Origin: Bdellovibrionales bacterium
GTDB lineage: Bacteria; Bdellovibrionota; Bdellovibrionia; Bdellovibrionales; JAMPXM01
Assembly: GCA_043739185.1 (NCBI GenBank)
Contig: JAYUEN010000366.1
Span: 1-12,110 of the forward strand
Length of the DNA: 12,110 nucleotides
Direction of reading: 5' to 3'
The stretch's first letter is position 1. Each line of letters opens with the position of its first letter. The notes below the pieces were generated by a model. The model worked only from the letters and a program-made list of their open reading frames with translations. It made no database searches and had not been told where the DNA came from. Of this stretch, positions 1 to 12,110 are shown one piece after another. Position numbers and translations under genes: made by a program.

Positions 1-21
1 TGGAGGCGCACTGCGCCTCCA
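1..21. repeat. Perfect inverted repeat TGGAGGCGCA-C-TGCGCCTCCA
   Basis: Bases 1-10 are the exact reverse complement of 12-21. It is followed by AAAA, not a T-tract, so it is not a canonical + strand terminator. It abuts the window edge, so the left context is unseen. Confidence 0.8.
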
Positions 22-55
22 AAACTAAGCAGGTATATTATGGTGTCAAAATGTC

Positions 56-71
56 TGGCACTGCGCTTGCT
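56..71 (+). promoter_or_regulatory. sigma54 (RpoN) -24/-12 promoter
   Basis: TGGCAC-TGCGC-TTGCT has exact GG-N10-GC spacing and a near-consensus match to TGGCAC-N5-TTGCW. It lies 50 nt upstream of ATG 122, which has an AGGGGG RBS at 111-116. Confidence 0.75.
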
Positions 72-121
72 TTATCAAGGGCTGGGGTCAGTTTGGATCA
101 TTCTATATTTAGGGGGATTCT

Positions 122-1048
122 ATGCAGTCATCAGAGCTACTTGAATCAGGACGCGATATTGCGAAGCCAATCCTTAACGGGACGAGTGATTCTGCACAGT
201 CCGCTATACAGCAAAAACTATATGAAGGTTTTAATGAGGCAAGATCCCGAAATCCTCATGTCTCACTAAGAGCTTATGCTCGCAGGCTCGCAGTTAGTCC
301 TGCAGCGCTTTCTGAAATTCTAAGAGGTAAGCGACGTATTTCAATGAACCGCGCAAAGGAACTCATTAGTCGAATGGGCATGGATCCTCAAGAGAGTGAA
401 AGAATATTGAGCCTCTTTGCAAATGAGTCCAAGAGCAGCGCTCGTAAAACCAGTGCGACGGCAAATGATATAAAAGCCATTCAAACTTTGACGGATCAGT
501 TTAATATTGCTTCGGAGTGGTATCATTATGCCATCGTTGCTTTAGCGCAAACTTCAGATTTTGATAGTCGTACGCTTTCGATTGCAAAACGATTGGGCAT
601 AACCGAGAAAGTAACTGAGGCCGCGATTGAAAGATTGGTTCGCTCAGGAATACTCTTGGCAGAAAATAATCAGCTCATTTTAAAGCCTCAGCTGCGTCGA
701 ATTGAAGGCGCAATTCCGACCAATATAATTCAATCAGCATTAAGGAAGGCTCAGACTCAAAATCTTGACTTGGCAAGAGTTGCATTGGATCAAGAAAATA
801 TTGAAGTTCATGAGTTCGGCTCTTTAACTCTCGCCATGAGTCCAGAACGATTAAGTGAAGCCAGACAAAAGATTAAAGAGTTTTTTGAGAAATTTGAACA
901 ATCGATAGAGCAAAATACGAAGCGCACTGAGGTTTATAAATTGAATTTACAATTGATTCAACTCAGTCAAAGAGAGAGCCTCGAAGCGGCGGCCAAAGCC
1001 ACCTTCAAGCAGGGCGCTACGAATGAAATGACTTCTTCTGAAATTTAA
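122..1048 (+). CDS. TIGR02147-family / DUF4423-type HTH protein, putative transcriptional regulator (308 aa)
   Basis: N-terminal XRE-like HTH (RNPHVSLRAYARRLAVSPAALSEILRGKRRIS), central 'FNIASEWYHYAI', second wHTH (IAKRLGITEKVTEAAIERLVRSGIL) and C-terminal 'TLAMSPERLSEARQKIKEF...EVYKLNLQL', the layout of this family expanded in Bdellovibrio and Fibrobacter. RBS present. Confidence 0.85.
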   Translation: MQSSELLESGRDIAKPILNGTSDSAQSAIQQKLYEGFNEARSRNPHVSLRAYARRLAVSPAALSEILRGKRRISMNRAKELISRMGMDPQESERILSLFANESKSSARKTSATANDIKAIQTLTDQFNIASEWYHYAIVALAQTSDFDSRTLSIAKRLGITEKVTEAAIERLVRSGILLAENNQLILKPQLRRIEGAIPTNIIQSALRKAQTQNLDLARVALDQENIEVHEFGSLTLAMSPERLSEARQKIKEFFEKFEQSIEQNTKRTEVYKLNLQLIQLSQRESLEAAAKATFKQGATNEMTSSEI

Positions 1049-1063
1049 TATAGCTCAAGGTGC

Positions 1064-1693
1064 ATGAGCGAAAAAAATTGGCTTGAAAATCTAGACGCGA
1101 GTTTAGAACTTCTTGCGACCGATGGTTATTTTGAGGTTTTAGATTTTATTGATGAAGCTACGGTCATGCAGCTGGTTTCTCAAGTAAATGATTTAAGGGC
1201 CGCTCATCAATTTCGAGCCGCAAGAGTTGGCGCAAGGCCGGTGCTTGAGACCGAAGTGCGCTCGGATGAGATATTTTGGCTGGATAGTAAATTGATTGAA
1301 AGCTCCAAAGAGCTTCAAAAATATTTTGAAAACATAGGCCAATTGCAGCGCAGGTTAAATGAAAAATATTTTTTCGGCTTACGCTCAAATGAATCTCACT
1401 TTTCAAGGTATCCGTCTGGTGCATCTTACAAGCGGCACAAAGATGTGAGCGAACATTCGAACAAGCTTTCAAGCGCTCATTTAGGGACGAGAAAAATTTC
1501 GATCATATGTTACCTCAATTCAAATTGGAGACCCGAACATGGCGGGCAGCTTCGATTATATCTAGACAAAAACTTTGTCGACGTGACACCAACGGTGGGA
1601 AAATTGGTTGGGTTTCTTTCAGAAGAAATTGAACATGAAGTGCTCACCACATTTGATGAGCGCCTAAGCCTTACTTCGTGGCTCTTGAATTGA
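1064..1693 (+). CDS. 2OG-Fe(II) oxygenase, prolyl-4-hydroxylase/EGLN(SM-20)-like (209 aa)
   Basis: HxD iron motif (YKRHKD), distal His (EHEVL), 2OG-binding Arg (RLSLTSW), plus 'VRSDEIFWL' and 'YLNSNWRPEHGGQLRLY' segments. AAGG RBS, 15 nt after the previous stop, so probably co-transcribed. Confidence 0.9.
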   Translation: MSEKNWLENLDASLELLATDGYFEVLDFIDEATVMQLVSQVNDLRAAHQFRAARVGARPVLETEVRSDEIFWLDSKLIESSKELQKYFENIGQLQRRLNEKYFFGLRSNESHFSRYPSGASYKRHKDVSEHSNKLSSAHLGTRKISIICYLNSNWRPEHGGQLRLYLDKNFVDVTPTVGKLVGFLSEEIEHEVLTTFDERLSLTSWLLN

Positions 1694-1743
1694 CAGAACT
1701 TAATCCTTTCAATTGGTAACTTCTTAATTTTATGAAGTGGTCA

Positions 1744-1784
1744 AATCTAAACAGCTTCGGAGGCAGGCAAGCCGATTTTAGATT
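1744..1784. other. Stem-loop downstream of the oxygenase (possible terminator or RNA structure)
   Basis: AATCTAAA (1744-1751) pairs with TTTAGATT (1777-1784), with inner GCTT/AAGC. On the minus strand the stem extends via a G-U pair to about 14 bp with a 2-nt bulge. Confidence 0.5.
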
Positions 1785-1805
1785 GCAGCAATTGCTTCAG
1801 AAACA

Positions 1806-1853
1806 GAGTCTGAGTCTGAGGCTGAGTCTGAGGCTGAGGCTGAGGCTGAGGCT
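1806..1853. repeat. Hexamer tandem repeat (GAGKCT)x8
   Basis: GAGTCT GAGTCT GAGGCT GAGTCT GAGGCT GAGGCT GAGGCT GAGGCT, read directly from the sequence. Confidence 0.95.
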
Positions 1854-1964
1854 GTCAATCGGTCAGCCGCAGCTGCTGCCATGAAGACTGATTTGAATTC
1901 TATTCTCACCTATGAAAGTAGGAGCCACAGTCGGCATCGAAAGCCTTGTCATATCGCACTTTTT

Positions 1965-1994
1965 GTGACAGTTTGTAGGCACAATATAGATAAT
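1965..1994 (+). promoter_or_regulatory. Possible sigma70-type promoter for the small basic gene
   Basis: GTGACA (1965-1970), 18-nt spacer, GATAAT (1989-1994). Each box is 5/6 consensus and sits just upstream of the RBS at 2003-2008. Confidence 0.35.
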
Positions 1995-2013
1995 TTTATT
2001 CGAAGGAGAAGTC

Positions 2014-2106
2014 ATGAAGGGCAAGAAAGTTAGAAAGAAAAATAAACATCACGCGAAGCGCTTGGCAAAGAAAGTTAAAAAGAACAAGAGCCATCAGAAA
2101 AGATAA
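2014..2106 (+). CDS. 30-aa Lys/Arg-rich small protein MKGKKVRKKNKHHAKRLAKKVKKNKSHQKR; candidate bS22/mS38-like small ribosomal protein
   Basis: Not in the ORF track (too short). AAGGAG RBS at 2003-2008, ATG at 2014, TAA at 2104-2106, and an intrinsic terminator 30 nt later. Contains 13 Lys, 3 Arg, 3 His and no acidic residues. Confidence 0.8.
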   Translation: MKGKKVRKKNKHHAKRLAKKVKKNKSHQKR

Positions 2107-2135
2107 AGCTTAGTAGTTTAAGGTAATTAAGACTG

Positions 2136-2166
2136 AAAACCTCCTTGAAGCGGGAGGTTTTTTTTT
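2136..2166 (+). terminator. Rho-independent terminator
   Basis: AAAACCTCC-TTGAAGCG-GGAGGTTTT stem-loop ending in a run of 9 T. The upstream A-tract makes it possibly bidirectional. Confidence 0.9.
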
Positions 2167-2303
2167 GCGATTCGACTTCGACGTTATGCGTTTAATAAAT
2201 AATTAAATACACAAAACAAATGATGAAATATTTCAAATTGGTCGCTTTCAGTTGCTAAATTCGAACAATCTCTGTAACTCAAGTAAGGCATTTTTGTTAC
2301 TAA

Positions 2304-2861
2304 ATGGGGGTATTGATGTTGGCTCGGAAGTCTTGGCAGGTCCTGGTTCTAGCAGTTTCAATCGTGTTCTTAGTTTCAGAATTTTCTCAGGCTTATACGG
2401 GTTCGGGAGATGGGGTTCCAACCTGTCTCAATGATCAAAGTCAGCCAATGACAGTAAACAATCAAAGTGTGCTCCAGATGAAAATTAGCACACCCAATTC
2501 TTATCATGCACGCGCCCTTGTTTCTGGTGTCGTGACCAAGCTCTATTCAGATGCCACTTGCCACCATCACTTTGAGCTTCAAATTGGAAGCGGAGCTGGT
2601 GACACAATTGAAATTATCTACAACGAAGAATTTGGAAAGTTTCCTGCCTTTGGATTGGGAGCAAAAGTTATTGTGTGCGGAGATTATATAACTTCGAATC
2701 GTCCGTCTCAGTATCCAATTTCTCCGGATGGTGCGATCATTCATTGGGTTCATAAAGCGCCAAATCCAGCCCATCATCCTTCAGGGTTTTTGGTAATCAA
2801 CGGCGTTTTGACGGGTCAAAGTATTGGCAATGGCAGTGGAAACTGCGGTAACAAAAACTAA
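2304..2861 (+). CDS. Secreted DUF3465-type protein (start at 2304 or, more likely, ATG 2316)
   Basis: Signal peptide (RKSWQVLVLAVSIVFLVSEFSQA) and motifs 'VSGVVTKLYSD...HHHF', 'VCGDY', 'GAIIHWVH...HPSGFLVING' resembling DUF3465. GGGGG at 2306-2310 is a plausible RBS for ATG 2316. Confidence 0.75.
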   Translation: MGVLMLARKSWQVLVLAVSIVFLVSEFSQAYTGSGDGVPTCLNDQSQPMTVNNQSVLQMKISTPNSYHARALVSGVVTKLYSDATCHHHFELQIGSGAGDTIEIIYNEEFGKFPAFGLGAKVIVCGDYITSNRPSQYPISPDGAIIHWVHKAPNPAHHPSGFLVINGVLTGQSIGNGSGNCGNKN

Positions 2862-2874
2862 TCGTGAAGTTGTT

Positions 2875-4035
2875 TTATAAAAATGCTAAAAGTGCGGCGG
2901 CAAGCATTGCCCCCGCCGCTGAAAAGTAAAAGCATTGTGAGACTCCCCAGTGATCCCAGATAAATCCTGCAGACAAACTCGCAAATAGACTTGCCACACC
3001 CGTAAAGCTTCCGAGTATTCCCAAGCCAGTCGCCTTCATTTCAGGTGGTAGTAAATCAATCGCTAAGGCTTTGCCAACCCCGTCTGTTGCAGCCATATAA
3101 ATTCCATAAATTCCAAAAAGAAAAAAGAAACTCCAAAAGTTGCTTGCTTGTGAAAAACCTAAATAAGTTAGGGCGAAGACTAAAAGCCCGGCACAAATGA
3201 TCCACTTTCTTTGGATGCGATCAGAAAGGATGCCAAGATAGGGACTGAGAAGCGCGTAAATTAAATTATAAAAACAGTAGAGTAAGATGCTTGTCTGCAA
3301 CTCAATGCCTGAGGCTTTGGCTTTGAGCAAAATGAATACATCACTTGAATTTGCGATTGAAAACAGGGTCCAAGTTCCCAAATAAAAGCGAAATTTGTTT
3401 GAAAGCATTGAGATTGAAATTTTAGTTCGCGTTTGACCAACTGAGGACGCCTTTTTTGGCACTGAATCTTGTACGCCAAAAACGAAAGCGACGGCGAGAA
3501 GACCAGGAAGAAAAGCCCAAAAATAAATTGCTCGTAAATCACCATGGTATTTCAAATAGAAAACTGCAATGAGTGGACCGATGGCCGCGCCAAGAGTGTC
3601 CATGGCTCGATGCCAGCCAAAAGCAGCACCACGGAGTTCCGCGGGGACGGCTTCGCTTAACAGAGCGTCTCTCGGGGCGGAGCGAATGCCTTTGCCAGTT
3701 CTGTCAAGCGCGCGCGCTGACAAGACCCCAGTCCAAGAACTTGAAAAGCCGATCAAAGGTTTCGCTAAAGCAGTCAATAGATAGCCAGCCCAAACAAAAG
3801 TTCGACGTGATTGAATGCGGTCAGACCATGCGCCTGACGTACTCTTAAGCAAACTGGCAAGAGCTTCGGCAACACCTTCAATAAAACCAATATGGAGCAT
3901 CGAGGCTCCTAAAACCGTGCTGAGAAAAATGGGTGTGATAGGATAGAGCATTTCACTTGAGATGTCGGCAAAAAGTGAAACCAGTCCAAGCTGAACGACT
4001 GTACGGTTGAGGGCGGATCGATTAAATGCGCTAAT
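2875..4035 (-). CDS. MFS transporter (track gives 2875..3951; homology-like sequence extends upstream, candidate ATT start at 4035, 386 aa)
   Basis: About 12 hydrophobic segments and motif-A-like loops (GAWSDRIQSRR, GILSDRIQRK), plus 'DRTGKGIRSAPRDALL' and 'GAAFGWHRAMDTLGA'. The in-frame upstream sequence LNRTVVQLGLVSLFADISSEM looks like TM1. The start coordinate is uncertain. Confidence 0.85.
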   Translation of the reverse strand: MSAFNRSALNRTVVQLGLVSLFADISSEMLYPITPIFLSTVLGASMLHIGFIEGVAEALASLLKSTSGAWSDRIQSRRTFVWAGYLLTALAKPLIGFSSSWTGVLSARALDRTGKGIRSAPRDALLSEAVPAELRGAAFGWHRAMDTLGAAIGPLIAVFYLKYHGDLRAIYFWAFLPGLLAVAFVFGVQDSVPKKASSVGQTRTKISISMLSNKFRFYLGTWTLFSIANSSDVFILLKAKASGIELQTSILLYCFYNLIYALLSPYLGILSDRIQRKWIICAGLLVFALTYLGFSQASNFWSFFFLFGIYGIYMAATDGVGKALAIDLLPPEMKATGLGILGSFTGVASLFASLSAGFIWDHWGVSQCFYFSAAGAMLAAALLAFL

Positions 4036-4444
4036 AAATAAATCCGAGTTTATAGGTGCGATTGAGTTCCCAAACGGTATTTTTAGTTTTCAACTCAACC
4101 AAGTCATACTTTATAAGTGCGCCGTAACGGTAACCATCAATCCATTCAGAAACAAAAACTTCAAGTTTGAAATCGCCATCTTTTTTTTGTGGGATGCTAA
4201 AGGCATCTTGTTTGAGCCAGTCTTGCACATGGCTCGCGTCTGAACTGACCTCAATACTTCGAATGCTCGACCAGGCAGCAGGAAGATAGTGATTTTTTTC
4301 AAGCAAACTCAAATCTGTACGCGTGGCAAGCGCAAACTTCTTAAAGGGAGGTGCCAACCAAAAGCCAACATCTGCTTGGGCAAGGGATAAGATGGCCACC
4401 AACATAATTCCGAGGCCGTAGACCAATTTCTTTGTAGAGTTCAT
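4031..4444 (-). CDS. Hypothetical exported or membrane-anchored protein (137 aa)
   Basis: Basic N-terminus and hydrophobic stretch (KKLVYGLGIMLVAILSLAQA, AxA site). Its ATG overlaps the upstream TGA (ATGA at 4444-4441), with an AAGGA RBS. No family recognised. Confidence 0.75.
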   Translation of the reverse strand: MNSTKKLVYGLGIMLVAILSLAQADVGFWLAPPFKKFALATRTDLSLLEKNHYLPAAWSSIRSIEVSSDASHVQDWLKQDAFSIPQKKDGDFKLEVFVSEWIDGYRYGALIKYDLVELKTKNTVWELNRTYKLGFIY

Positions 4445-5154
4445 GAATGAGTTTCCTTTAGATTGAGCAGAGATTCGGCCAATAGCTTGCCGAAAAATTT
4501 CTGCTCGGAGTGATTTCTTTTTTTGAAATACTTTTGATTTAATTCGATTTCAATTCCTGCATAATTTTTAGTTCCAAAGTTTTTTCGTAGAATCTTTGTG
4601 AGTCCGTCTGAACTGCCCTTGTAAGGATAATTGAGGCGAATAACAAGTTCGGGTGCCAGTTGTCTTAAGTGGGTCTTAAGTTTTTGAGCGATTTCGCTCT
4701 CGAACTTTGACTTCGGGTCAAATAAGATACCGATGTCGGCATTTCGAATCACGCCATTTAATTTGGGGGTAAAAGAATGAATAGCGAAATGAATCACAGA
4801 TTTCTTTCTTGCCAAAATTCTTTGAACATTATTTTGAACTTTAAGGTGATGAGGACGGTAATAATTATTGAGAATAAAAGTCTTTTCAGTTTGCTTTAAG
4901 GATGCGCTAAATTCTGAATATAAGGCTTTATTCGTTAAGGACCTATTGTGATCGATCAACAATCTTGAAATTTCAGATTTATAAAAAGGCAAATGCAATG
5001 CCTTGGCAAGTATCTTTGTGACACCTAGAGCCCCAATATCAAAACCACGATGCGATTTGAGGATGGCTTTTTGTCCGAGGTAGAGCTTTTGAAATCTTCG
5101 CGGAATTTTATTCCCAGCATGTTCACAGCTCAGAACCATTGACGCCGGCATCAT
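4441..5154 (-). CDS. N-formylglutamate amidohydrolase (FGase)-family protein (237 aa)
   Basis: Family motifs SCEHAGN, SHRGFDIGA, SRLLIDHNR, YYRPHH, IHSFTP, NYPY and IEIELNQ. ATGA overlap with the GCS2 gene. Confidence 0.9.
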   Translation of the reverse strand: MMPASMVLSCEHAGNKIPRRFQKLYLGQKAILKSHRGFDIGALGVTKILAKALHLPFYKSEISRLLIDHNRSLTNKALYSEFSASLKQTEKTFILNNYYRPHHLKVQNNVQRILARKKSVIHFAIHSFTPKLNGVIRNADIGILFDPKSKFESEIAQKLKTHLRQLAPELVIRLNYPYKGSSDGLTKILRKNFGTKNYAGIEIELNQKYFKKRNHSEQKFFGKLLAESLLNLKETHS

Positions 5155-6383
5155 GGATTGGCCTCAAAGGATCGATTTTCACTTAGACACTTAGCCAATT
5201 GTTGATACAGACCCGTGAGATTTTGAGATTGAAGTTTGTGCTTCATACGGGTCGCGAGACTGCCGTGCTCCAGTATAAGTTTCAAGTGGCGATTGATTCG
5301 TGCATCCGAAGCTTCGTTCTCAAAATTGCTTTTCTCATAAAGAAAATGCAATAGATCGCGGCTGGTTTTGGCATTTTCACACCCCCAAAAATGAGCATAT
5401 TGGGGTTGGGTGATTTTGGCATTTTCAGCGAAGAGAATATTTTCTTCAAGTACGGCGCGAAGAATAGGAACCGATTGCGCTTGTTGTTTTTGATGTGTAA
5501 TCCAATCTCCCTGACAGAGTTGCTTGAGCAAATGGACTATGAATTCGACAATGGCTAGATCAGCAAGTGGAGCCTCCTGTATGTCCATCAGGCGAATTTC
5601 AATGCTTTGCCTTTCGAAGCGCGCAATCGCACCTCGCGAATTGAGCCAGTCATGCTTTAGTATTTGATCTGGATCATGGGGACTTATTTTTTGGTAAATT
5701 TTTGCGAGAATTTGGTCGTGATAGTCTTGCATACAGGTGACTACTTCAGGAATCACATCGCCAGCAATCTCTGGGACTTTGAGTTGATTTTTTTTATAAA
5801 ACTGTAGGCGCGAATCGAGGGCGGTTTGCAATTTTCCCTCATAGATCGGCGAGCTGGCTGCAAGTGCGGGTATAAGTGGTAATACGACTCTGATGGCAGC
5901 ATGGAGCTTTACAAAATCGGCGTCGGTTTTAAAGGGCAGATTGATGTGCGTGCTTTGTACATTTGACCAGCCGTGCCCTCGGCAATCAAAAATACGATTG
6001 TACGCGGCATAGACTTCATTATTATCATGTGGCCAAAGTTTGGTGTCTTGGTCTGGATTCATAAATGGATGCATTGCGGTTGGCAGTAGCATGGCAGAAT
6101 ATTTTTGCAAATAATTATTAAGCCGTTGAACGCCTCTTGCAAACTCGTCGCTTAAACCGTTTAGTGCGGCAACGGGTCGCGCCACCTTAATTTCTACCAA
6201 ATGCATAACGAGTTCATTGGACCATTCGAGCCTGCCATCATCAATATCGGAGACAATTTTGCCAGCAATATCTCGAAATACTTGATCGGTAATCGGAAGA
6301 GCTTTCAGTGTTGTTTGATCAACAATCATATATTCAAGTTCAATTCCGTAAGCTTCGAATAGACTAAAAAATGGAGTCGCCAT
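5151..6383 (-). CDS. Glutamate--cysteine ligase family 2 (GCS2/YbdK-like) carboxylate-amine ligase (410 aa)
   Basis: GIELEYMIVD (ExE), NELVMHLVEIK, AMHPFM, STHINL, ALAASSP and IEIRLMD motifs of the glutamine-synthetase-like fold. AAGGA RBS 9 nt after the RimK stop. Confidence 0.9.
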   Translation of the reverse strand: MATPFFSLFEAYGIELEYMIVDQTTLKALPITDQVFRDIAGKIVSDIDDGRLEWSNELVMHLVEIKVARPVAALNGLSDEFARGVQRLNNYLQKYSAMLLPTAMHPFMNPDQDTKLWPHDNNEVYAAYNRIFDCRGHGWSNVQSTHINLPFKTDADFVKLHAAIRVVLPLIPALAASSPIYEGKLQTALDSRLQFYKKNQLKVPEIAGDVIPEVVTCMQDYHDQILAKIYQKISPHDPDQILKHDWLNSRGAIARFERQSIEIRLMDIQEAPLADLAIVEFIVHLLKQLCQGDWITHQKQQAQSVPILRAVLEENILFAENAKITQPQYAHFWGCENAKTSRDLLHFLYEKSNFENEASDARINRHLKLILEHGSLATRMKHKLQSQNLTGLYQQLAKCLSENRSFEANP

Positions 6384-6392
6384 TTTTTCCTT

Positions 6393-7862
6393 TCAGCCAA
6401 TTTGATTCTTGAGTTTACGCTTTTCGATGCGATCTCTAAAAACCTGCATTATGGTCGTATAAAGTTTCATTTTGAGTTCATCATCTTCATAGCCAAAATC
6501 AATATTGGGGTTGTCGTTTATTTCGATCACATAGCATTTGTTATTTTCAAACTTGAGATCGACGCCATACAAACTACTGCCTATGAGATTTGCGGCTTTT
6601 AGAGCGGTGTTAATGACCTGTTCTGGCACTTCATTAAGTAAAAAACTTTCGACTTTGCCATCGAGAGCGGCTCCTTTAGTTTGATTTTTAGTGATTTGCC
6701 AATGATCTTTAGCCATATGGTATTTACATGCAAAGATCGGAGTCTTGTCGATAATTCCTATGCGCCAATCAAAATCTGTTGGTAAATATTCTTGCGCAAT
6801 AACCAAGTCCGACTTTTGCCACATATCTTCAAGATGCTCGACCAATTCTTTTGCGGTTTTGGCTTTTTTAACTCCAAGTGAAAAGGCGCTATCGGGTTCT
6901 TTTAAAATACAAGGAAAGCCTATCGCCGCACTCACCTTCTTTACATTGTCCTTATGAACGATAAGTGTTTTGGGTACACGGACCCGATGATTTTCTAAAA
7001 GCTCTGCCAAGTAGATTTTATTCGAACATTTCAATATTGAATCTGGCTCATCAATTACCACAAGGCCCTCGGCCTTTGCTCTGCTGGCAAATCGGTAAGT
7101 ATGGTGGTTGACCGCGGTTGTCTCTCGAATAAACAGCCCATCAAATTGAGCGAGTCGACCAAAGTCTTCTCGCGTGATTAGTTCAGCGCTCATGCCTTCC
7201 TGATGGGCGGCTTTTACAAAGCGTTTGAGTGCTTCTTCGTTCGATGGGGGCAGCCTTTCTTCGGGATTGACTAAAATTGCCAAATCGAAATTATATACAA
7301 CTTCTTTTTTTAGACCAATACTTCGATCTTGAAAAAAACTTTTGGCAAAAGAAATCACATATGGATAGTGAGTTTCTGAAATTTCAAGGGCTGAAAGCGG
7401 TCGAATGCTTTGTAGTTGCCACCTTGACGTATACTCAAATTCAGCTCTTAAGAGTGGGCATTGAAAAAGCTTAAACAGGTGGGTTGAAAGTTTGTCATAT
7501 CTTTTGGCCGTATTGTGACCAAAATAAATGCTTAAGGTAAATTCTTTGGATTTTAGACCCTCTAGACTCTTTTGAATAAGTTCGTCTAGATCTTCGGAGA
7601 CAAAACGAACCAAGGATTGTGACTTCAAATCTTGAATGGTTGATACTGTTGGCACAGGCTTGTGGGCTCTTGCCGAAGCGAGCAGAGAAACGTAATAACC
7701 AAAGCTTTGATAGCGATAGGATTTACATAAATTGTAAACCTTAATGTAACGTGATTTTCTGAATGCCTCTTGGGTCAAATAGTCCTTGGCAGAGCAGAGT
7801 TCGACTCCACGAATTTTTATTGGCCATTCAGCTGGATCATCTACGACAATCAAATGCCTCAT
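6393..7862 (-). CDS. RimK-family ATP-grasp ligase with N-terminal RLAN domain (489 aa)
   Basis: N-terminal 'VYNLCKSYRYQSFGYYVSLLASARAH' (RLAN-type) and ATP-grasp motifs CSNKIY, PCILKEPDSAFSLGV, QEYLPTDFDWRI, GVDLK and IEINDNPNID. Confidence 0.92.
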   Translation of the reverse strand: MRHLIVVDDPAEWPIKIRGVELCSAKDYLTQEAFRKSRYIKVYNLCKSYRYQSFGYYVSLLASARAHKPVPTVSTIQDLKSQSLVRFVSEDLDELIQKSLEGLKSKEFTLSIYFGHNTAKRYDKLSTHLFKLFQCPLLRAEFEYTSRWQLQSIRPLSALEISETHYPYVISFAKSFFQDRSIGLKKEVVYNFDLAILVNPEERLPPSNEEALKRFVKAAHQEGMSAELITREDFGRLAQFDGLFIRETTAVNHHTYRFASRAKAEGLVVIDEPDSILKCSNKIYLAELLENHRVRVPKTLIVHKDNVKKVSAAIGFPCILKEPDSAFSLGVKKAKTAKELVEHLEDMWQKSDLVIAQEYLPTDFDWRIGIIDKTPIFACKYHMAKDHWQITKNQTKGAALDGKVESFLLNEVPEQVINTALKAANLIGSSLYGVDLKFENNKCYVIEINDNPNIDFGYEDDELKMKLYTTIMQVFRDRIEKRKLKNQIG

Positions 7863-8608
7863 AATTTTGTTCTCAATGTTTTCTGTTTGAGACCAGTAGC
7901 CGTCGGTTTTTCGGGCTCAATAACAAGAAAATTGGCATCGTAACTTACGATGCCCAAAAGAATACTCGAGACGACTCGATTGATGTCGACCCAATAGTAG
8001 TGGCTTCCAGCAAAAGGATTGAGTTGAAAAGGGTCCGCAACGAGCAAATTTTTTGTTCGACGATCGTGGCCTGCGAGAACCACAAAATGACCTGATGGCT
8101 CGCCAGCAATACTATTGTATTCATTGGTATCGGGCATTTCTCGGGCTGAGCGGTAAAGGTAAGTCGCGCTCAAGCCTGTCAAAATTGGGATATCGTTTTT
8201 CAAATACTTAAATAAAAGTTGCGGATTGAGATCTTCAAAAATTATTTTGCCACCGAGTTTTAAAAACTCAATATAGCTTTCAGAGGCTTGCCGTAATTTT
8301 AGATTTCGCTTTTCACGCTTTTGAGCATCTAGAAACGAACTCAAATTGATATCCGGATGAATAAACCAAGTCGGATCGAACAAATGTAAATTATAGGTGT
8401 AAATCTTTGCTCGGTAGCCACGCTTAAGCGCGTGACAGCCCAACATAACGGCAAGCGTTCCGCCATGTTCGAGTGATGGAATTTGCGAAATAATTCGTTT
8501 GAGATTTGTTTGGTCTTTATAATAAGCATAAATGCCGTGCAGACAAGTTGGCCCACAGGTTGTTTCAGTTGGCTGGGGCAATATTTTAAAGGGAAGAGTT
8601 TTGCGCAT
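7859..8608 (-). CDS. Peptidase C39-like (papain-fold, DUF3335-related) cysteine peptidase (249 aa)
   Basis: Q12-x5-C18 'QPTETTCGPTCL', catalytic His in GHFVVLAGHD and Asp in LLVADP. Its stop overlaps the RimK ATG (ATGA at 7862-7859). No GNAT domain is fused. Confidence 0.85.
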   Translation of the reverse strand: MRKTLPFKILPQPTETTCGPTCLHGIYAYYKDQTNLKRIISQIPSLEHGGTLAVMLGCHALKRGYRAKIYTYNLHLFDPTWFIHPDINLSSFLDAQKREKRNLKLRQASESYIEFLKLGGKIIFEDLNPQLLFKYLKNDIPILTGLSATYLYRSAREMPDTNEYNSIAGEPSGHFVVLAGHDRRTKNLLVADPFQLNPFAGSHYYWVDINRVVSSILLGIVSYDANFLVIEPEKPTATGLKQKTLRTKL

Positions 8609-8770
8609 CAGTTTGGTGTTCGCGACCTTGGTCTAGTTTGGTGTCCAGTTTCGGAGATCAATCAAATCGTACTTAATTATTGTTGTGAGACAAGTAGGGG
8701 AGGGTCAAGTAAAGGATTCTCCATTGGGCGTGCGCTTCATTGAAAGATTTCATCTTTTCTTAAAAATATT

Positions 8771-8797
8771 TGAATACAAAGCTCATCTTGCCGATAG
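8771..8797 (+). promoter_or_regulatory. sigma28 (FliA)-like promoter
   Basis: TGAATACA-N11-GCCGATAG versus the consensus TAAAGTTT-N11-GCCGATAA. The -10 box is 7/8 and the -35 box is partial. It ends 7 nt before ATG 8805. Confidence 0.6.
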
Positions 8798-8804
8798 AGA
8801 AGCA

Positions 8805-10016
8805 ATGAAAAGAGCATTTCGATTTATTCCCAAAAAGTTAAGGCATTCTTTGTATAGAAAATCCATTAGTCTTGATTTTTTAGAGGCCAAGGATATTCAT
8901 TTTAAAATTGCCGAATCTCAAGATGAACTCGAGCAAGCTTTCCGGTTGGTTTACCAAGTTCATCAACAAAAAAATCTGGTTTCGGTCAATTCCTCTGAGT
9001 TAAAGCTGAGCAAATCTCACCTGCTCCCAACGACCAAAGTTTTGATTGGCGTAAAAAATGAAAAAGTAGTGAGCTCGCTTTGTTTGAGCCTTGAGGGCCC
9101 ACTTAGAACGGCATGTGAAGAGCAATTTGATTTGAGTAATTTAAAGGCTCACAACAAATGTTTTGTCGAGATTTCAAATTTTGTTTTTGACTCCGATTCG
9201 TGCGAGGATTTCAAAACTCATCTCTTTCCTCTATGTAAATTGGCAGTTGAATTGAATAAAATATTTTTTAAAGCAGATTATTTTGTATTGGCAATGTTGC
9301 CAGAGTATTTCGATTATTGGCACTCCCTATTCTTTTTAGAAAAGTTATCAGATAAATCGGTGCGCTTTCAAGAGCTAAATGGCAGAGCGGCAGTATGTGC
9401 ATTTGCCGATATCAAAAAGCTAGAAGCGCAATTTTTGGCTCGATACGGTAAAAAAACGGCGCGCAGCAATTTGCACAAATACTTTTTTGCAGACGTAGAT
9501 GCTAGATTTAAAAATTTAAATGCTTTTGATATTGTCAGACAGCGATATACACCACAAATTTTAAATTACTTCTTCAATATTAAGACTAATATTTTTTCTC
9601 ACTTAACTAGTTTTGAAATTCGTACCATTCATAAAATATATGATGAAAATGAATATGAGGAAGTATTACCCAATGTGGGGTTCCGTACCAAATTTGAAAA
9701 TCAAAGAAACTCTAAGCGGCACCATACCCATTTGACGGGTAAAATTAGCGGAGAACATTCGATAAAAGCAGAGTTCCCGATTACCATTAAGACCGTCTCG
9801 CTTCATGGCGTTGGCGCAGTTTGTCCTCATAAGCTTCAAAATGAAAGCACCTATCATATGCTTGTGGACATTGGAGAAAAAACTCAAATCGCCCTTTTAG
9901 TAAGCCCTGTTTGGTCAAGTCGCGATCAAACTTATGGTTTTCTGATTCGTAACCAAAGTCCTGATTGGATGAGCTTTGTTGAAACCTTCAATAAAGAGCA
10001 GAAAAAAGCATCTTAA
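8805..10016 (+). CDS. FeeM-like N-acyl amino acid synthase (GNAT-fold) domain fused to a C-terminal PilZ-like domain (403 aa from ATG 8805; track starts at GTG 8685)
   Basis: 'FKIAESQDELEQAFRLVYQVHQQKNLV...HLLPTTKVLI...FVEISNF' resembles the FeeM/acyl-HSL-synthase-like core. The C-terminus has RxxxR (RNSKR) and a variant D/NxSxxG (TVSLHG), followed by a beta-rich segment ending VWS...YGF. Confidence 0.7.
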   Translation: MKRAFRFIPKKLRHSLYRKSISLDFLEAKDIHFKIAESQDELEQAFRLVYQVHQQKNLVSVNSSELKLSKSHLLPTTKVLIGVKNEKVVSSLCLSLEGPLRTACEEQFDLSNLKAHNKCFVEISNFVFDSDSCEDFKTHLFPLCKLAVELNKIFFKADYFVLAMLPEYFDYWHSLFFLEKLSDKSVRFQELNGRAAVCAFADIKKLEAQFLARYGKKTARSNLHKYFFADVDARFKNLNAFDIVRQRYTPQILNYFFNIKTNIFSHLTSFEIRTIHKIYDENEYEEVLPNVGFRTKFENQRNSKRHHTHLTGKISGEHSIKAEFPITIKTVSLHGVGAVCPHKLQNESTYHMLVDIGEKTQIALLVSPVWSSRDQTYGFLIRNQSPDWMSFVETFNKEQKKAS

Positions 10017-10063
10017 ATTTAAAAAAATTTTTGCGTGAAATGGCGTTCTGAGAATTGCCTGAC

Positions 10064-10099
10064 AAGGATCCATTTGTTTTTTTTATCAAATGGATCTTT
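10064..10099. terminator. Hairpin between convergent genes, probable bidirectional terminator
   Basis: AAGGATCCATTTG (10064-10076) pairs with CAAATGGATCTTT (10087-10099): 13 bp with one G-U pair and a 10-nt loop. Confidence 0.65.
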
Positions 10100-10110
10100 A
10101 AAAGTTCAGA

Positions 10111-11808
10111 TTATTTTCCGCCAACTGTTGGGCGTATGTCTTTGGCGGCCGGTGCAGCAGCCGCAGGAGCGGCAGCTTTATTGTCGCCTGCTTTTGGTGC
10201 AGACGCAGGTGCAGCAGGAGCAGCAGCTTTATTGTCGCCTGCTTTTGGGGCAGACGCTGGTGCAGCAGGAACAGCGGCTTTATTGTCGGCAGCTTTTGTT
10301 GCTACGACAGGAGGCGCAGCATCGGGTGCATCTTCATCTGGATCGTCAATATCTGAAGTTGTATCTTGATTAGGTTTTCCTAAAGCTTTGATAGCAGGAG
10401 CGGCGGCAACAGGAACCACCCCAGCTTTATTGTCGACAAGCTTTGGAGCAGCAGCAGCAGGACCGGCAGCAGCAGGACCGGCAGCAGCAGCAGGAGCGGC
10501 AGCAGCAGGAGCAGCAGCAGCAGGAGCGGCAGCAGCAGCAGGAGCGGCAGCAGCAGCAGACGGAGCAACTTTGTTTGGATCCCGTGTGTGCTTCATAATA
10601 AATTTTTCGAGTTCCGCATCATCCGAGTTCTTACGATCAAATTTATGAAACTTACGAATGCCATTTGAATCGTCATTTAATGTTAAAGTATTTCCATCTT
10701 TTGAGATTTCAAAACTTATTTTTTGATCCATTGAATAATTGATCAGACAATTTGCCAGAGTCTTTTGTTCAGGCGTTAGCTTAGCTTTTACTAGTAAATT
10801 GTCTGGGAAAGCATTCTTTTCACCGACAGCTGCTTTTACTTTAATGCTTGAGTCTGTGCTAGAAGTTTCAAACAAAATTCCATCGGCGGTGATATTTGAA
10901 GTGGCTTTAAGAATATCATCTGTCACATCGGCTAAAAGAATGCGGCTCATTCGAAAACCAACGCCCTCAGGTGTTAGCATTTTATCAATTGGAAGAATCT
11001 GATATTTACAAGCATATCTTTCAATGAACTTGTTTTGTTTGTCATCAAACCGAATATAATCAAAATTAGTTTTAGAAATTTTCATTTCTGGTTTTGATTT
11101 TGCTACTTTATCATCTTCAATTTGAAGTACCCATGATCCAGAAAGTGCTGAGCTTTGAAGCACTTCGATTTTAGGGGCTGGCGCGCCTCCTGGCTTTGTT
11201 GTTTCATCTAATGCTGCTGCTTTCAGTGCACTTGCGGCAAGGCTCGCCGGTGACTTTGCAAGCATATCTTTTTCAAGAGTTTGCATTTGTTCAGCAGTTA
11301 CTTTCTTAAAGCTCATTCCTGCAGCTGCTTTATCTGTTTCAGGAGTTCCATCAGACTTGAGGCCCAATACTAACTTATCAGCAGTGACCGAAAATTTGAC
11401 ATTACCTTGAGCCAAAGATACGGCGCAATCATTTGGAGCTTGTGGCGACTTTCCGCCTTGAGTCTCATTAAATTTAATATGTTTTGAAGTGACAGTAAAA
11501 TTTGAATGAGTCGTATCGGTAACCGCATTCACGGCCGGTGATTTGTCGATAGCATCAATGATACAAACCAATTTCAAGTTCATACTTTTTTCAGAAATAT
11601 TTAACATATAGAGATTTTGTTGTCCGGCCTTTGGGCTTTGGGGGTCGGAGGCCCAGGTGCCTACAATACTTTGTGCAGCGGCGAGATCCGCGGCCTTTGT
11701 TGTTTGATCAGGAGCAGATTTTTGACCGCAGCCGACAAAAGCAAGCACATAAGCACTTAAAGAAACTGATACTGCAAACATCATTTGTTTTTTGCTAAGA
11801 GAATACAT
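10111..11808 (-). CDS. Putative lipoprotein of unknown function with Ala/Pro-rich repetitive C-terminus (565 aa)
   Basis: Signal peptide II with lipobox LAFVG-C27 and an AAGGAAGG RBS. Two beta-rich regions begin IVGTW and LSGSW (lipocalin-like GxW starts), followed by a low-complexity tail of about 150 aa. Confidence 0.8.
   Translation of the reverse strand: MYSLSKKQMMFAVSVSLSAYVLAFVGCGQKSAPDQTTKAADLAAAQSIVGTWASDPQSPKAGQQNLYMLNISEKSMNLKLVCIIDAIDKSPAVNAVTDTTHSNFTVTSKHIKFNETQGGKSPQAPNDCAVSLAQGNVKFSVTADKLVLGLKSDGTPETDKAAAGMSFKKVTAEQMQTLEKDMLAKSPASLAASALKAAALDETTKPGGAPAPKIEVLQSSALSGSWVLQIEDDKVAKSKPEMKISKTNFDYIRFDDKQNKFIERYACKYQILPIDKMLTPEGVGFRMSRILLADVTDDILKATSNITADGILFETSSTDSSIKVKAAVGEKNAFPDNLLVKAKLTPEQKTLANCLINYSMDQKISFEISKDGNTLTLNDDSNGIRKFHKFDRKNSDDAELEKFIMKHTRDPNKVAPSAAAAAPAAAAAPAAAAPAAAAPAAAAGPAAAGPAAAAPKLVDNKAGVVPVAAAPAIKALGKPNQDTTSDIDDPDEDAPDAAPPVVATKAADNKAAVPAAPASAPKAGDNKAAAPAAPASAPKAGDNKAAAPAAAAPAAKDIRPTVGGK
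10163..10297 (-). repeat. 51-bp coding tandem repeat (~2.6 copies; KAGDNKAAAPAAPASAP)
   Basis: GC(A/G)GCTTTATTGTCG recurs at 10172, 10223 and 10274 (51-nt period). A fourth DNKA core lies near 10424. Confidence 0.9.
10445..10566 (-). repeat. GCA-rich coding low-complexity repeat (AAAAAP / AAAGP units)
   Basis: Runs of GCAGCAGCA interrupted by GGA/GGACCG on the + strand, encoding poly-Ala-Pro in the lipoprotein. Confidence 0.9.
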
Positions 11809-11852
11809 AGGGCCTTCCTTGAAAATAGATAAATGAATTCAAAAGCAATAAA

Positions 11853-11868
11853 TGCATCTGTGATGCCA
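11853..11868 (-). promoter_or_regulatory. sigma54 (RpoN) -24/-12 promoter for the lipoprotein
   Basis: The minus strand reads TGGCATCACAGATGCA, with exact GG-N10-GC spacing, 44 nt upstream of ATG 11808. An AT-rich tract lies upstream. Confidence 0.65.
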
Positions 11869-12110
11869 AATGTTTGAAAATGAGATTTATATGCAAAGCA
11901 TTTAAATTACTGAGGAAAAACAAGGCAGTATAGTTCGGGCTTATGAACTCAGTTCGATTTAAAGCCAGTGTGACGTTGCGGGATAGATGCTGTCAAATCC
12001 TTGGACAGGTCAATGGCCCCTTCTTCTTTTGGTTGGTCTAGCTATGTAGTGGCAATAGATTGCAGATAGTAGCTATGAGTTAAGTAGCCACATTTCTGCA
12101 TAATCTTAAG

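Follow-up and report, generated by a model that had tools for sequence, protein, structure and literature searches.

A four-gene RLAN ATP-grasp cassette in a Bdellovibrionales bacterium and its possible role in the metabolism of a small N-capped peptide

In this study, a coupled run of six genes was examined in a 12,110-nucleotide stretch of a Bdellovibrionales bacterium (contig JAYUEN010000366.1, positions 1 to 12,110; hereafter the window), and only the first four were found to form a system: those for a papain-fold enzyme, an RLAN/RimK-type ATP-grasp, a GCS2 ligase, and an FGase-like amidohydrolase (Table 1). The following 137-aa and MFS genes are bystanders, and nothing about the product can be read from the transporter. 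On the observed gene content, coupling, intact catalytic residues, and partner patterns, we tentatively propose that the four core genes make and recycle a small N-capped (gamma-glutamyl) peptide inside the cell. The locus is an ordinary member of the RLAN-type neighbourhood, a kind that had been predicted previously. The cassette is present in many bacterial groups, and RLAN ATP-grasps occur in all four phyla sampled, yet in the literature searched, which covered few subscription journals and no supplements, neither a product of the cassette nor a study of it was found.

Table 1. Genes of the coupled run in the window
Product	Position	Strand	Length	Remark
Papain-fold (C39-like) cysteine enzyme	7859-8608	(-)	249 aa	Core gene 1; peptidase or transacylase
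RLAN + RimK/LysX/ArgX-type ATP-grasp ligase	6393-7862	(-)	489 aa	Constant gene of the system
GCS2 (YbdK-like) carboxylate-amine ligase	5151-6383	(-)	410 aa	Cassette-specific subfamily
FGase-like amidohydrolase, Atu2144-like branch	4441-5154	(-)	237 aa	Optional core gene
Protein with hydrophobic N-terminus	4031-4444	(-)	137 aa	Resident Bdellovibrionales gene, outside the system
MFS transporter	2875-4035 (with ATT start)	(-)		Genus-level neighbour, outside the system

ORF calling, Pfam searches, and direct reading of the junctions bore out the six ORFs, domains, and junctions described in an earlier sequence-only reading. Pfam recovered the expected RLAN (2e-49), RimK (3e-11), GCS2 (2e-24), FGase (3e-24), C39-type (Peptidase_C39_2, 9e-9; C39, 3e-6), and MFS_1 (4e-41) domains; DUF3335, also expected, was not matched. 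The junction sequences contain ATGA overlaps at 7862-7859, 5154-5151, and 4444-4441, and a 9-nt gap containing AAGGA between the ATP-grasp and GCS2 genes. Promoter-like sites occurred at chance level (23 vs 22.7). The junctions and the literature search thus support the view that this is probably a coupled amide-ligase/hydrolase unit without a known product. The proposed overlap of an MFS ATT start with the TAG of the 137-aa gene was also found. The MFS frame has no ATG, GTG, or TTG before 3951, and because conservation extends upstream of that position, the ATT start is plausible. Contigs of two other runs of the same study (X3, 3820-4181; X4, 3781-4288) span the junction with 0 differences, which rules out an assembly slip; those of runs X1 and X2 matched only in short, unrelated pieces.

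The same reading had counted all six genes as one system whose product is exported or imported through the MFS and 137-aa proteins, which we now regard as highly improbable. The window shares the coupling of all six genes with two genomes of the same genus; in loci L115 and L140 GCS2 is followed by an unrelated MFS gene, and the GNAT-type locus L022 has an MFS gene of 48% identity upstream. However, unrelated genes on the flanks show the same degree of synteny within that genus, and the core is linked to the two genes only in close kin: the MFS gene adjoins it in 3 of 73 loci, all from one genus, and the core almost always occurs without either gene. Both also occur without the core. RLAN is present in 12 of 41 relatives, the MFS gene in 6, of which 3 lack RLAN, and the 137-aa gene in 30, of which 22 lack the cassette. 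The usual neighbour of the 137-aa gene is a divergent lipoprotein-like gene of about 400 aa (10/13 loci). The 137-aa protein, which matched no Pfam family and only unnamed sub-0.9 clusters in the Atlas, is probably exported or membrane-anchored, judging from its hydrophobic N-terminus.

The ATP-grasp is the constant gene of the cassette. Its RLAN domain (PF14401; 167.7 bits, cut-off 25) is fused to a RimK domain (43.7, cut-off 21), and an adjoining papain-like enzyme retains an intact triad, as in other RLAN-type neighbourhoods. In the structure model (pLDDT 91.8), the folds closest to the C-terminal part were ArgX (Z 28.0), LysX/ArgX (27.8), RimK (26.6), and GshB (22.0). The protein scored far below the family cut-offs for RimK (NF007764, 17.6 vs 331; TIGR00768, 74.3 vs 143.4) and GshB (NF003573, 21.6 vs 272). 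R246 and R367, invariant in 126/126 sequences, align with R64 and R189 of RimK, which contact glutamate according to two reports (PMC10092738, PMC10375531); R8, R98, and R102 of the RimK processive belt are not kept. As to whether RLAN is a degenerate ATP-grasp copy, the secondary structure of the model repeats at offset 200, which ranked second of 338, and HHalign gave a probability of <=1%. An Atlas search returned nothing for RLAN.

The GCS2 protein is predicted to be the gamma-glutamyl capping enzyme. E15, E17, E57, E64, H146, R250, E262, and R264 are invariant in 53/53 sequences. Pfam GCS2 is the only family cut-off reached; the scores for YbdK (TIGR02050, 48.2 vs 176.4) and glutamate-cysteine ligase (TIGR02048, 36.6 vs 249.05) fall short, and a single-sequence search found no close solved structure. 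In one biosynthetic cluster, a YbdK-like enzyme is described as the source of a gamma-Glu dipeptide (PMC13674229). The cassette subfamily occurs in 11/301 Bdellovibrionota genomes, with RLAN adjoining in 11/11, and in 0/301 Pseudomonadota genomes, although 62 of these have RLAN. Because the subfamily was found only beside the ATP-grasp in the genomes sampled, a GCS2 that makes gamma-Glu-Cys independently of the other enzymes, an alternative raised by the sequence-only reading, is ruled out.

The FGase-like amidohydrolase is the predicted uncapping enzyme. Its profile matches favour Atu2144 (1e-44) over HutG-type 2q7s (7e-8). It was expected to lie outside histidine catabolism, and this holds: it scored 24.8 against the HutG cut-off of 278.75 (TIGR02017), and elsewhere in the genome C539 encodes a urocanase and C398 a further FGase with a better score. 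Among the 20 best relatives retrieved from outside the cassette, 12 adjoin a glutamine-synthetase-family gene and 8 adjoin TRAP genes, with permease and aldehyde dehydrogenase genes also nearby; the GS-like neighbours fall below every named cut-off, and we take these to be gamma-glutamyl-amine pathways. The gene is present in 45/75 GCS2-type loci and 0/64 other loci.

In the papain-fold enzyme, C18, H174, and D192 are kept in 74/74 homologues and Q12 in 73. Its model (pLDDT 94.7) matched C39 (Z 15.8) and the phytochelatin synthase-like Alr0975 (Z 15.6) about equally, and CtaG less well (Z 9.5); no close solved structure was found by single-sequence search, and Pfam gave no match to any phytochelatin synthase family. 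HHalign (97%) nevertheless indicates that it is homologous to DUF3335 in spite of the missing Pfam match. It lacks the ABC-transporter fusion of C39 bacteriocin-processing peptidases, being a stand-alone ORF, and no ABC transporter was present among the 11 window proteins scanned. The suggestion of two ligases paired with two candidate deconjugases was overstated: this enzyme may be a transferase instead of a peptidase, and 30/75 GCS2-type loci have no FGase-like gene.

A survey of RLAN loci revealed that GCS2 is exchanged for another partner. By local profiles, of which the GNAT profile detects mainly RimI-like GNATs, 139 loci comprised 74 with GCS2 only, 55 with GNAT only, 1 with both, and 9 with neither; for this set 65/204 RLAN loci were dropped for short flanks and 4 as duplicates, and 20 loci had been chosen for unusual architecture. 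A Pfam re-scan of 113 of 124 candidate neighbouring frames (several of the 11 omitted had been scanned earlier) reassigned the GNAT locus L158 to both, giving about 73-74 GCS2 only, 54 GNAT only, 2 both, and 9 neither, if the divergent GCS2 of L158 is taken as GCS2. In 8 loci the ATP-grasp and a GNAT form a single reading frame, and in 7 the ATP-grasp and GCS2 do so; two of these 7 (L028, L029) look like frameshifted assemblies. The partner GNAT is RimI-like (77.5 bits, cut-off 86.4), and some GNAT lies near at least 4 GCS2-type loci (L017, L198, L199, L055). In a tree of 132 grasp proteins, built with FastTree only and excluding 7 loci with no full-length grasp, GNAT and GCS2 changed 3 times; two GNAT groups were nested in the GCS2 side, one of them containing L158. 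The pattern thus appears to be mostly one old split, and therefore the loci are not independent. Active-site columns are identical across 85 GCS2-type and 30 GNAT-type grasps, and the two types can be told apart at only 4 further columns. Different deacylase-like genes accompany GNAT-type loci: AstE/AspA occurs in 7/55 of them, with L042 passing the aspartoacylase cut-off, and DUF2817 in 6. GNAT was present in 13/13 GCS2-lacking RLAN genomes of Bdellovibrionota inspected (of 26). RLAN ATP-grasps occur in 37/301 Bdellovibrionota genomes and in 58/201, 14/201, and 62/301 (Pseudomonadota) genomes of three other phyla. A plasmid search returned 11 records, mostly very large replicons.

For the proposed capped-peptide pathway, we infer the reactions, their order, and the substrate. 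First, an amino acid or amine would receive a gamma-glutamyl cap from GCS2; the RLAN ATP-grasp would next extend it at the carboxyl end by another amino acid, for which glutamate is the best guess. Uncapping would fall to the FGase-like enzyme, and trimming or transfer of the peptide to the papain-fold enzyme. In the sister version a RimI-like acetyltransferase stands in the place of GCS2, and therefore the cap there would be acetyl. Capping first and ATP-grasp ligation second is also the order in glutathione and animal NAA/NAAG synthesis. Against this proposal are the absence of the FGase-like gene from the 30 loci above, the 9 loci without either partner, and the proteins on which related enzymes act. 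The nearest fold matches of the grasp, ArgX, LysX, and RimK, are all enzymes with protein substrates, and the alternative partner is a RimI-like GNAT; in the neighbourhoods surveyed, no gene for transport or precursor supply was a recurrent companion of the cassette. These points favour reversible protein tagging, in which the ATP-grasp would glutamylate a protein at its C-terminus, a protein amine would be the target of GCS2 or of the RimI-like GNAT, and both hydrolases would serve as erasers. This is rather unlikely: no target or carrier gene is conserved among the loci, three loci of the window's genus contain no acidic mini-ORF, the belt residues of RimK are not kept, and C383 carries another RimK-like gene, next to a retropepsin-like one (labels read from sequence).

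A glutathione-like thiol route, in which gamma-Glu-Cys from GCS2 is extended with a third residue by the ATP-grasp and the papain-fold enzyme works in the manner of phytochelatin synthase, would suit the GCS2 family membership, the tied Alr0975 match, and a 97.65% complete genome in which GshA was not found and no GshB passed its cut-off. We consider it quite unlikely: the ATP-grasp is closer to RimK/LysX than to GshB, and the same active site is found in GNAT-type hosts, where 8/10 genomes tested for gamma-Glu-Cys supply have no GshA or clear GCS2 (the exceptions being G245, with GshA, and G493, with a divergent GCS2). The surroundings of the FGase relatives would suit a catabolic or salvage module, in which gamma-glutamylation shields an amine during breakdown, the FGase-like enzyme frees it, and the ATP-grasp has a side role; with no oxidase, dehydrogenase, or uptake system recurring with the cassette, and the ATP-grasp, not GCS2, as the constant gene, this is decidedly unlikely. 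A wider form of the capped-peptide proposal, also unlikely, is that a single widespread, undescribed pathway to an N-capped acidic peptide, the bacterial equivalent of NAAG or glutathione, is built around RLAN ATP-grasps as its invariable core; the cap would come interchangeably from a gamma-glutamyl ligase or an acetyltransferase, each with its own deacylase, and a papain-fold transpeptidase passes the capped unit to an acceptor. The partner swap narrows the question to what GCS2 glutamylates, what GNAT acetylates, and whether one ATP-grasp accepts both.

Among known systems, RLAN/RimK-like ATP-grasp neighbourhoods were reportedly predicted years ago by Iyer, Abhiman, Burroughs, and Aravind in 2009, and the Pfam text for RLAN describes an RLAN-RimK-like grasp beside a papain-like enzyme, with GCS2 and peptidase neighbours. 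The window shares the fusion and the papain-like enzyme; here, however, that enzyme is stand-alone and without a Pfam DUF3335 match, and GCS2 and FGase replace GNAT. DUF3335 is often fused to GNAT domains, which may serve as peptide ligases or acetylases, according to PMC10318531, citing Iyer 2009. RimK-RimB poly-glutamylation and LysX/ArgX resemble the cassette in fold, the R64/R189 equivalents, and the pairing of ligase with hydrolase, but the cassette has an extra RLAN domain and a second ligase of another fold, lacks R8, R98, and R102, and lies far under the family cut-offs. Glutathione synthesis (GshA/GCS2 + GshB) with phytochelatin synthase likewise combines a gamma-glutamyl ligase, an ATP-grasp, and a papain-fold enzyme, whereas the grasp here is not GshB-like and occurs elsewhere with GNAT. 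In the closthioamide pathway, as described in PMC7183216, an ATP-grasp is similarly paired with a papain-fold enzyme (CtaD/CtaG) that moves acyl groups via a Cys-His-Asp triad. That pathway, in the same description, requires carrier proteins, whereas the neighbour survey, which used no carrier-protein profile, found no recurring small gene in cassette loci; CtaG is also a weaker fold match than C39. The animal NAT8L / RIMKLA-B / aspartoacylase set for NAA and NAAG combines an acetyltransferase, a RimK-like ligase, and an aspartoacylase, and, compared by gene set alone, the same kinds of enzyme occur together in some GNAT-type loci of the sister type.

The system encoded around the RLAN/RimK-type ATP-grasp (hereafter, the grasp) consists of four genes at most: those for the papain-fold enzyme, the grasp, GCS2 and the FGase-like enzyme. 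The sequence-only reading had proposed a coupled unit of six minus-strand genes, and its frames were borne out in position, as were its domains (C39-like, RLAN plus RimK-type ATP-grasp, GCS2, FGase and MFS_1); the family/profile search of the window's proteins returned no family match for the 137-aa protein. The junctions read as claimed (three ATGA overlaps, a 9-nt gap with AAGGA, and an ATT/TAG overlap), and this coupling suggests that the six genes may be co-transcribed. The nearest named records to the window's ATP-grasp were Bdellovibrionales genome assemblies with 88-91% identity. The MFS lacks a standard start ahead of its conserved N-terminal stretch (window 4035-3951, minus strand; L015 11810; L014 5629). 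An ATT overlapping the upstream stop occurs in the window and in G001, a same-genus relative, and G003, another, has both an ATG and a ribosome-binding-like site; the MFS likely uses a non-standard start through coupling or is a weakened gene.

One scan of genomes, one of metagenomes and samples of four phyla together yielded 204 RLAN loci, of which the 139 with enough flank were kept. Since unusual architecture was the ground for choosing 20 loci and the metagenomic ones were best matches to the window's protein, the following proportions are not census figures: among 75 loci pairing the grasp with GCS2, the papain-fold gene was present in 65, the FGase-like gene in 45 and all four core genes in 41. 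No FGase-like gene occurred without GCS2 among the 139 loci, and an archaeal record (L021) held three of the core genes. Of 301 Bdellovibrionota genomes, 11 had the cassette GCS2 subfamily, adjoining RLAN every time, and it turned up in 0 of the 264 without RLAN; found solely beside RLAN, it is a dedicated partner of the RLAN grasp. Architectures also included RLAN-grasp-GCS2 fusions (L163, L165, L167, L168, L169), GNAT-RLAN-grasp fusions (L145, L155-L160, L175) and RLAN and grasp in separate frames (L170-L173). The RLAN grasp of L103 has a gamma-glutamyltranspeptidase gene (5156-6985) immediately upstream, with GCS2 and GNAT absent nearby. Six RLAN loci (L119, L123, L168, L180, L206, L207) have carbon-nitrogen hydrolase genes in their vicinity, and by eye those of L119 and L123 carry an N-terminal extension resembling GNAT.

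The earlier interpretation was partly supported: the evidence agreed with a coupled four-gene core and did not support membership of the 137-aa gene and the MFS, both of which occur without RLAN. Among 41 related genomes, including the window's own, 12 had RLAN, 30 the 137-aa gene (22 without RLAN) and six this MFS (three without RLAN). In three genomes having both, RLAN and the 137-aa gene were on separate contigs. The usual neighbor of the 137-aa gene is a divergent gene for a lipoprotein-like protein of about 400 aa (10 of 13 loci fetched). In two relatives (G006, G013) this gene stands next to the cassette end, separating it from the 137-aa gene, and its best match in the window's genome is on another contig, C277. 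The 137-aa gene probably came to adjoin the FGase-like gene through loss of the lipoprotein-like gene. Of 73 GCS2-type loci with sufficient sequence, three have the MFS next to the core; these three belong to one genus, in which unrelated flanking genes are equally syntenic. Unrelated MFS genes do lie downstream of GCS2 in two loci (L115, L140), and a 48% identical MFS precedes one GNAT-type locus; a six-gene system with an exported product is nonetheless very improbable.

Synteny of the flanking HTH, oxygenase and DUF3465-like genes was limited to the genus. The FeeM-like gene has three paralogues in the genome and holds the same position solely in G003.

Other features of the window
Feature	Position	Strand	Remark
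TIGR02147/DUF4423 HTH protein	122-1048	+	several paralogues in genome
2OG-Fe(II) oxygenase	1064-1693	+	
GAGTCT/GAGGCT hexamer repeat run	1806-1855		
30-codon lysine-rich ORF	2014-2106	+	AAGGAG site
Hairpin and T run	2136-2166		after the 30-codon lysine-rich ORF
Weak DUF3465 match	2304-2861	+	
FeeM-like N-acyl amino acid synthase gene	8685-10016	+	divergent from cassette
565-aa lipoprotein-like ORF	10111-11808	-	Ala/Pro-rich repeats; without Pfam family

By local profiles, 74 of the 139 loci had GCS2 only, 55 a RimI-like GNAT only, one both and nine neither. In one locus (L158) a GNAT-fused grasp is followed by a divergent GCS2, and a Pfam scan of 113 neighboring frames gave no further such case; at least four GCS2-type loci (L017, L055, L198, L199) have some GNAT nearby. 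The grasp shares a frame with GNAT in eight loci and with GCS2 in seven, two of the seven doubtful. DUF3335, to which the papain-fold enzyme is homologous (HHalign, 97%), was present in 36 of the 55 GNAT-only loci, and GNAT-type loci recruit other genes in FGase's stead (AstE/AspA in 7/55, DUF2817 in 6). Three genomes (G819, G827, G949) have two RLAN grasp copies; in the former two, one copy is with GNAT-DUF3335 and the other with GNAT alone. The GNAT/GCS2 label changes three times on a FastTree of 132 grasps, so the swap pattern is mostly one old split plus two nested replacements. Active-site columns are alike in 85 GCS2-type and 30 GNAT-type grasps. Both GshA and a clear GCS2 were absent from 8 of 10 GNAT-type genomes tested, indicating that the swap does not simply reflect host-supplied gamma-Glu-Cys. 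We infer that GCS2 and GNAT have equivalent roles, with amine acylation as their common chemistry.

The modeled ATP-grasp part was closest to ArgX, LysX and RimK (Z 28.0-26.6), with GshB lower (22.0). RimK R64 and R189 contact glutamate, according to two reports (PMC10092738, PMC10375531). The invariant R246 and R367 of the grasp align to these residues; RimK R8, R98 and R102 are not kept, which argues mildly against RimK-style chain growth. In the cassette GCS2 all the invariant residues (acidic, His and Arg) are kept, and its match to YbdK is weak. The FGase-like enzyme is nearer Atu2144 than HutG, and hut genes and a second FGase occur elsewhere in the genome, in agreement with the sequence-only reading that it probably does not act in histidine catabolism. 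Matches to it occurred in 43 genomes; of the best 20 relatives retrieved from these outside the cassette, 12 have a glutamine-synthetase-family gene (below all named cut-offs) nearby, eight have TRAP genes and three a permease and an aldehyde dehydrogenase. We take these surroundings to be a gamma-glutamyl-amine pathway layout, which suggests, by analogy, that the FGase-like enzyme is a gamma-glutamyl amide hydrolase. The Cys-His-Asp triad of the papain-fold enzyme is invariant, and its fold is as close to C39 domains as to the phytochelatin-synthase-like Alr0975. CtaG, as described in PMC7183216, is a papain-fold enzyme able to transfer acyl groups alongside an ATP-grasp. In the model, RLAN strands and helices 40-91 repeat grasp-part 242-291 at an offset of about 200 (window 7862-7320, minus strand, residues 1-180); RLAN may have originated as a degenerate duplicate of the ATP-grasp, an idea for which sequence tests gave no support.

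We tentatively prefer a pathway, inferred at every step, acting on a small intracellular peptide: GCS2 would cap the substrate, the ATP-grasp would then extend it, the FGase-like enzyme would remove the cap, and the papain-fold enzyme would trim or transfer the product. Protein tagging is rather unlikely but keeps some weight because proteins are the substrates of the enzymes nearest the grasp in fold, and because the cassette has no recurrent gene for supply or transport. Synthesis of a glutathione-like thiol is improbable, and an amine-salvage module slightly more so; together with the six-gene exported product, these readings are weaker than peptide capping and protein tagging.

No experimental study of the RLAN cassette was found in the literature searched. 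The weight of the finding lies in a testable cap-swap hypothesis, not in the window's locus itself. This neighborhood type, catalogued by Pfam as RLAN, reportedly traces to Iyer et al. 2009, a paper cited in PMC10318531, and the locus is a member of a known but uncharacterized kind.
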